Sequence record: S69320.2
Source of the DNA: a phage
Direction: 5' to 3' (one strand)
DNA: 347 nucleotides
The number at the start of each line of letters is the position of its first letter. Position 1 is the stretch's first letter. Below, piece by piece: positions 1 to 341 of this stretch. The position numbers were made by a program, and so were the translations under genes. Below the pieces are notes generated by a model that saw nothing but the letters and a program-made list of their open reading frames with translations, was not told the origin of the DNA and did no database searches.

Positions 1-6
1 CATATG
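1..6. other. NdeI recognition site (CATATG) with the gene's ATG embedded at 4-6; engineered cloning junction
   Basis: Exact CATATG at 1-6 seen in the sequence. From memory, native Ff phage has ...TTCAATG here, so the CAT is most likely primer-introduced. The ATG in an NdeI site is the standard arrangement for T7/pET-type expression cloning. Confidence 0.8.
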
Positions 7-129
7 AATATTTATGACGATTCCGCAGTATTGACGCTATCCAGTCTAAACATTTTACTATTACCCCCTCTGGCAAAACTTCTTTTGCAAAAGCCTCTCG
101 CTATTTTGGTTTTTATCGTCGTCTGGTAA
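4..129 (+). CDS. ORF actually translatable from the engineered ATG: 41-aa aberrant product (10 native pX residues plus a 31-residue out-of-frame hydrophobic tail), stop TAA 127-129
   Basis: Direct codon-by-codon reading gives MNIYDDSAVL|TLSSLNILLLPPLAKLLLQKPLAILVFIVVW*. The tail is Leu/Ile/Val-rich because the phage sequence is T-rich and is being read out of frame. This is not a native gene product. Confidence 0.5.
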   Translation: MNIYDDSAVLTLSSLNILLLPPLAKLLLQKPLAILVFIVVW

Positions 130-305
130 ACGAGGGTTATGATAGTGTTGCTCTTACTATGCCTCGTAATTCCTTTTGGCGTTATGTATCTGCATTAGTT
201 GAATGTGGTATTCCTAAATCTCAACTGATGAATCTTTCTACCTGTAATAATGTTGTTCCGTTAGTTCGTTTTATTAACGTAGATTTTTCTTCCCAACGTC
301 CTGAC

Positions 306-314
306 TGGTATAAT
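306..314 (+). promoter_or_regulatory. Extended -10 promoter element (TGnTATAAT), likely the native Ff promoter serving gene V, embedded in the 3' end of the gene X coding sequence
   Basis: TGgTATAAT at 306-314 is a perfect extended -10 consensus. The -35 region at 17-nt spacing (TTTCTT, 286-291) is a poor match, which extended -10 promoters tolerate. Ff phages are known to carry a promoter just upstream of gene V, and gene V starts a few nt past this window in the native genome. The exact promoter assignment is from memory and was not verified. Confidence 0.45.
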
Positions 315-341
315 GAGCCAGTTCTTAAAATCGCATAAATC

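Follow-up and report, generated by a model that had tools for sequence, protein, structure and literature searches.

The product of gene X of the filamentous phages, pX, is needed for the accumulation of phage single-stranded DNA and restrains the replication driven by the initiator pII, as is known from work on f1. Over-production of pX from a plasmid is reported to block Ff DNA synthesis. According to the annotation of the M13 reference genome (NC_003287.2), pX is made from an in-frame start internal to gene II and has the same sequence as the C-terminal part of pII; its 111 aa correspond to the last third of that protein. The 347-nt stretch of DNA analysed here (the window) was compared by megablast with 50,697 phage records. 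The search gave 33 matches, every one an Ff filamentous phage (M13, f1, fd and recent isolates), and all of them fall on the gene annotated as X, which occupies the 3′ part of gene II. The window is colinear with Ff gene X, all 33 Ff records being matched over 97% of its length. Window positions 4–338 (335 nt) align with nt 496–831 (336 nt) of M13 and f1 with E = 9e-174 and 99.7% identity, and 335 of 336 positions are identical to M13 NC_003287 and f1 J02448. The window is thus of the M13/f1 type; fd and the newer isolates show only 91–97% nucleotide identity. Such a match to gene X, broken by a single one-base gap, is far beyond chance. The features of the window are as follows.

1–6, no strand: engineered NdeI site CATATG, replacing the native upstream sequence GGGGGATTCAATG; the phage match starts at position 4
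4–33, plus strand: gene X codons 1–10 (MNIYDDSAVL), in frame with the ATG
4–129, plus strand: open reading frame (ORF) encoded from the ATG, 41 aa with stop codon TAA at 127–129; ten pX residues followed by 31 out-of-frame residues (TLSSLNILLLPPLAKLLLQKPLAILVFIVVW)
31–35, plus strand: the lesion, TTGAC where the Ff references have TTGGAC; one G of the doublet at M13 525–526 is missing
36–338, plus strand: gene X codons 12–111 and the stop codon TAA (336–338), intact and identical to M13/f1, displaced by one base from the ATG
159–338, plus strand: 59-aa ORF (pX 53–111) opened by the first ATG in the pX frame past the lesion
339–347, no strand: engineered 3′ junction, ATC followed by an EcoRI site GAATTC (342–347), replacing the native GGTAATTCA after the stop codon

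The phage matches from the 50,697 records never reach the first three or the last nine bases of the window. At the start junction the native TTCAATG has become CATATG. The first-pass annotation had called the ATG engineered; this is right for the preceding CAT only, and the ATG itself (4–6) is the native gene X start codon (M13 496–498). At the other end the native flank TAAGGTAATTCA reads TAAATCGAATTC in the window. We note that this junction (339–347) retains the native AATTC; a few native bases past the stop codon were apparently altered to create the EcoRI site, with no unrelated tail added. With NdeI and EcoRI sites at its exact ends and the native flanks swapped out, the window is evidently a man-made NdeI–EcoRI cassette carrying Ff (M13/f1) gene X. 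Searches of the plasmid collection (PLSDB) and of complete E. coli genomes gave zero matches to the cassette.

Window positions 31–38 read ttgacgct. A MAFFT alignment with M13, f1, fd and FfLavender contains a single gap column, at which the references have GCAGTATTGGACGCT and the window has GCAGTATT-GACGCT. Pairwise alignment with the whole M13 genome located the gap at M13 525/526 as the sole difference within the gene; the missing G could be either M13 525 or 526, the alignment being equivalent for both. Gene X is 336 nt long in 33 of 33 Ff phage records and 335 nt long in the window. The native GAC codon, which encodes Asp-11 of pX and Asp-310 of pII, is cut down to ‘ac’ at 34–35, flanked by codon 10 (TTG, 31–33) and codon 12 (GCT, 36–38). 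Putting one G back gives a translation identical to M13 pX, 111 aa. The first-pass annotation, made from the letters of the window, had proposed that ten N-terminal and 100 C-terminal codons of pX lie in different frames joined by ‘ac’, and that an Asp codon is needed there, one G of a GG doublet having been lost. The codon count is confirmed by alignment and translation, and the native TTGGAC is present in all 33 records. The native sequence is not TTGACGCT, the reading that would have made the proposed Asp codon wrong. Its further claim, that translation ends at TAA 127–129 and yields no full-length pX, agrees with the 41-aa ORF that runs from the ATG at position 4.

In the phages an unbroken ORF of 111 codons begins at the internal ATG and ends with gene II; it is absent from the window, where the reading frame stops after 41 codons. 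The frame from position 3 reads ...DAIQSKHFTITPSGK...EPVLKIA*, that is, pX 11–111. In a Pfam search the domain G2P_X_C (PF05155, E = 2.7e-36), covering pX residues 20–108, was detected only in this displaced frame (window 18–338). The 41-aa product has no Pfam match and so is not a domain-bearing product. Since the lesion sits at codon 11, the whole functional domain is lost from the product of the ATG. Nor is the gene nested in frame within gene II, the NdeI and EcoRI junctions having replaced the native flanks of what is an excised cassette. The window is therefore gene X by sequence and is best called a defective cloned copy, which fails three defining features as a gene. As written, the cassette is predicted to be a null allele of gene X from which no full-length pX is made. 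If a phage genome carried this lesion, pII would lose its last 101 residues and end instead in 31 unrelated ones. From what is known of gene II, such a phage would be expected to replicate only with pII and pX provided in trans.

The 59-aa fragment would be the only pX-derived product open to the cassette, and then only if ribosomes initiate internally unaided; the sequence just ahead of ATG 159, GTTATGATAGTGTTGCTCTTACTATG, has no evident Shine-Dalgarno motif. An out-of-frame ATG at 139, with GAGG ahead of it at 132–135, starts an ORF of 19 codons. We also observed that the 31 out-of-frame residues (window 34–126) are very hydrophobic; if expressed, the 41-aa peptide could aggregate or insert into membranes. 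The exact 41-aa product is absent from a collection of 15 billion proteins. In a protein search against cluster representatives it shares no words with any of them, but that search is uninformative here as frameshifted pII variants hide inside the pII cluster. No structure of pX or of a relative was identified among PDB chains by sequence comparison; the best match (E = 0.85) is at chance level. On the minus strand there is no ORF of at least 20 aa and no RNA family match. The deletion creates TTGACG (31–36), a 5-of-6 match to the -35 hexamer, but the scan predicts no promoter-like site in the window, and this candidate was rejected. A scan for terminators likewise found no terminator-like site in the window.

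An exact look-up of the 59-aa ORF in the 15-billion-protein collection located it on three Logan contigs, L006, L007 and L008. L007 (SRR7430799_1035, 1,209 bp) has the exact deletion of the window in the native gene II context, L007 780–786 corresponding to window 31–35, and is the only other occurrence of the deletion found. It carries the M13mp signature changes C3T, C149T, C213T, C214T and G216T. The first 24 nt of L007 are the reverse complement of its own positions 63–89 (a fold-back) and its last 18 nt (1192–1209) are not M13; both ends are therefore assembly or chimera artefacts. L006 (SRR5681796_87) resembles the window in being an M13mp-lineage gene II/X with a one-base deletion that runs into the same TAA. 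It differs in that the deletion lies in an AAAA run at M13 568, and it has a private gene V deletion at 1081 together with G852T; L006 represents either a heavily damaged vector population or noisy data. L008 simply begins at the 59-aa ORF. Wherever they cover the positions, all three contigs carry C3T, C149T, C213T, C214T, G216T, C1229T, the deletion of T at 1565, C1663T and G6125T. S1 Table of PMC5405960 gives these changes as those that set M13mp18/M13KE apart from wild-type M13, and it has none inside 496–831. The M13mp signatures thus identify the three contigs as cloning-vector or helper-phage DNA in unrelated sequencing runs, and with no listed difference inside 496–831 the deletion is private to L007. 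The SRR accessions of the three contigs were not found in the papers searched.

The shifted frame that ends at TAA 127–129 is open for only 120 nt, in which 82 distinct one-base deletion alleles are possible. With two frame-broken contigs, the chance that one would carry the allele of the window is about 2/82, or 2–3%, a figure that is post hoc and concerns one contig. The coincidence is suggestive on those terms: it slightly weakens an explanation by primer error only and hints at a mild hot spot. The frameshifted pII allele of the L006 type is absent on exact look-up in the 15-billion-protein collection. An exact 28-mer of the deletion allele gave zero matches in viral, metagenome and genome contigs, collections that hold almost no Ff DNA. 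The wild-type 29-mer used as a control found only 1, 0 and 1 loci in the viral, metagenome and genome collections respectively. With the control near zero the 28-mer negatives are powerless, and we have rejected them as evidence.

The searches also brought up other DNA of the M13mp lineage. Positions 317–3249 of L010 (JPUP01000080.1, deposited as ‘SAR11 cluster bacterium PRT-SC02’, a marine single-cell genome) are M13mp18-type vector DNA. The segment begins at M13 5869, the lacZ-alpha insertion point, and carries all M13mp signature changes. Its pII is also deposited under Psychromonas PRT-SC03, Marinosulfonomonas PRT-SC04, P. aeruginosa, Klebsiella and E. coli assemblies; such pII entries are laboratory vector contamination annotated as bacterial genes. 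The start codon of gene III is GTG in L006 (1881), L008 (928) and L010 (2433) as against ATG in NC_003287 (A1579G, M13 1579), and T1737C is present in L006 and L010. Neither A1579G nor T1737C is in S1 Table of PMC5405960, and the RefSeq M13 and the wild-type M13 of that study may differ at 1579 and 1737.

Our preferred explanation is a real deletion that arose while the cassette was being constructed and left the construct null for gene X; we give this a probability of about 0.5. That the base is missing from the DNA rather than from the record alone, and that it went missing during construction, we infer; the gap itself, the two frames, the truncated product and the lack of recoding signals follow directly from the analyses. 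The missing G of the doublet in codons 10/11 could go back to an n-1 oligonucleotide, to polymerase slippage there or to faulty gene synthesis. Translation from the ATG would then run through ten correct codons and 31 out-of-frame ones before the TAA at 127–129, and the G2P_X_C domain would never be translated, giving a null allele. Synthetic oligonucleotides typically err by losing a single base, and the lesion is 30 nt from the 5′ cloning site, a region in which oligonucleotide-derived errors would be expected to concentrate. The identical deletion in an independent read-based assembly, L007, argues for a real deletion. Of the two origins that the first-pass annotation put forward, an n-1 error in the primer and a base-calling error, the first is borderline. 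The site is 28–31 nt into the gene and a primer of about 38–40 nt or more would be needed to cover it. An NdeI primer usually has 18–25 nt of annealing sequence, and such a primer would end before position 33. A longer primer than usual is plausible for the AT-rich start of the gene. The primer-like string CATATGAATATTTATGAC was not found in the papers searched. L007, in its M13mp context, has the deletion without any NdeI primer, and a primer origin is therefore not required.

The sequence alone does not separate a real deletion from a base-calling or typing error. It is possible, if less probable than a real deletion made during construction, that the clone is wild type and that one G dropped out in base calling, as a compression or homopolymer miscall, or in typing or copying out the record. 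Over 336 nt the sequences differ only by one base lost from a run of two, and such errors classically strike at runs of this kind; the ends of the record coincide with the restriction sites, hence it was edited by hand; and a depositor would normally describe a working pX construct. The GG doublet is, however, very short for a miscall, 11 runs of 4–5 identical bases in the cassette having been read correctly, and with the same deletion in an independent assembly a typing slip is not needed. L007 also bears on whether the loss at M13 525/526 recurs or circulates in M13mp-derived stocks, the cassette having been amplified from such a template. We consider this unlikely. It would account for the presence of exactly this deletion in a native gene II context with the M13mp signature changes, and the 2–3% estimate for chance coincidence is in its favour. 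Against it, the allele is on one contig from one sample, and that contig is error-prone, with its fold-back and non-M13 ends. The 340-aa frameshifted pII that it predicts, on wild-type, M13mp or VCSM13 backbones, is absent from the 15-billion-protein collection, whereas well over 100 contigs are listed with intact pII or pX. A phage with the lesion would have neither functional pII nor functional pX and would be unable to replicate alone, as is established for gene II. Moreover, M13mp18 and M13KE are identical to the wild type inside 496–831 (S1 Table, PMC5405960). We rate as improbable the proposal that the loss is a recurrent allele, or a circulating defective gene II/X allele which, like a defective interfering genome, is complemented by intact genomes in the same culture, and that the cassette inherited its deletion from such a template and not from a primer.

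A deliberate frameshift is also improbable, and if anything more so. The cassette could have been designed as an untranslatable control for work on gene X expression: the lesion falls early, at codon 11, the other nucleotides are unchanged and the whole functional domain is abolished, all of which are traits of a null control. The usual way to design a null, however, is to introduce a stop codon or to fill in or cut a restriction site, and none of the nine enzymes checked gains or loses a site by the deletion, the HgaI site GACGC being present in both alleles. Such a construct was not found described in the papers searched, a search for gene X constructs or frameshift mutants having given nothing relevant. 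We regard it as barely credible that the pX frame is regained by -1 ribosomal frameshifting or transcriptional slippage and a pX-like protein still made. With the pX frame open from position 18 onwards, a near-full-length product would follow from a -1 shift at any point in 18–126, and several X_XXZ tetramers are present, including A_AAG at 90–93. A canonical X_XXY_YYZ heptamer is nevertheless absent from the zero frame over 4–129, and the longest homopolymer, at 5 nt, is too short for transcriptional slippage, which takes about 9 or more A/T. No Rfam match was obtained at E <= 1 on either strand, and the wild-type gene needs no such event, so there is nothing to select a signal. Every explanation apart from recoding agrees that the recorded sequence cannot make pX.

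The lesion has practical consequences. Whoever takes this cassette or this record for ‘gene X’ would have a null allele in hand, one that specifies a hydrophobic 41-residue peptide and no pX, and annotation pipelines will call the 41-aa peptide or the 59-aa C-terminal fragment in place of pX. The identical deletion, found once more in unrelated public data, may point to a minor deletion hot spot in a vector backbone that is in wide use. Gene X itself has long been known. As a defect of cloning or sequencing the frameshift in it is an ordinary one and says nothing new about filamentous phage biology.

Among described systems the window is closest to gene X of M13 (NC_003287.2 nt 496–831, NP_510886.1) and f1 (J02448, AAA32210.1). 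Both have the same start and stop codons as the window, and its displaced frame encodes pX 12–111 exactly, together with the G2P_X_C domain. The window differs from both in lacking one G in codons 10/11, which breaks the ORF, and in being excised from gene II, with NdeI and EcoRI sites in place of the native flanks. The phages fd (J02451), FfLavender, FfLilac, FfIris and Copypasta have the same gene, 336 nt long, with the GG doublet and the GAC codon for Asp conserved; these differ from the window in nucleotide sequence (91–97% identity). L007 shares with the window the reading GCAGTATT-GACGCT, the same shifted frame to the same TAA and the same 59-aa downstream ORF. It differs in its native gene II–X–V context, with no NdeI or EcoRI site and with M13mp substitutions upstream of gene X.
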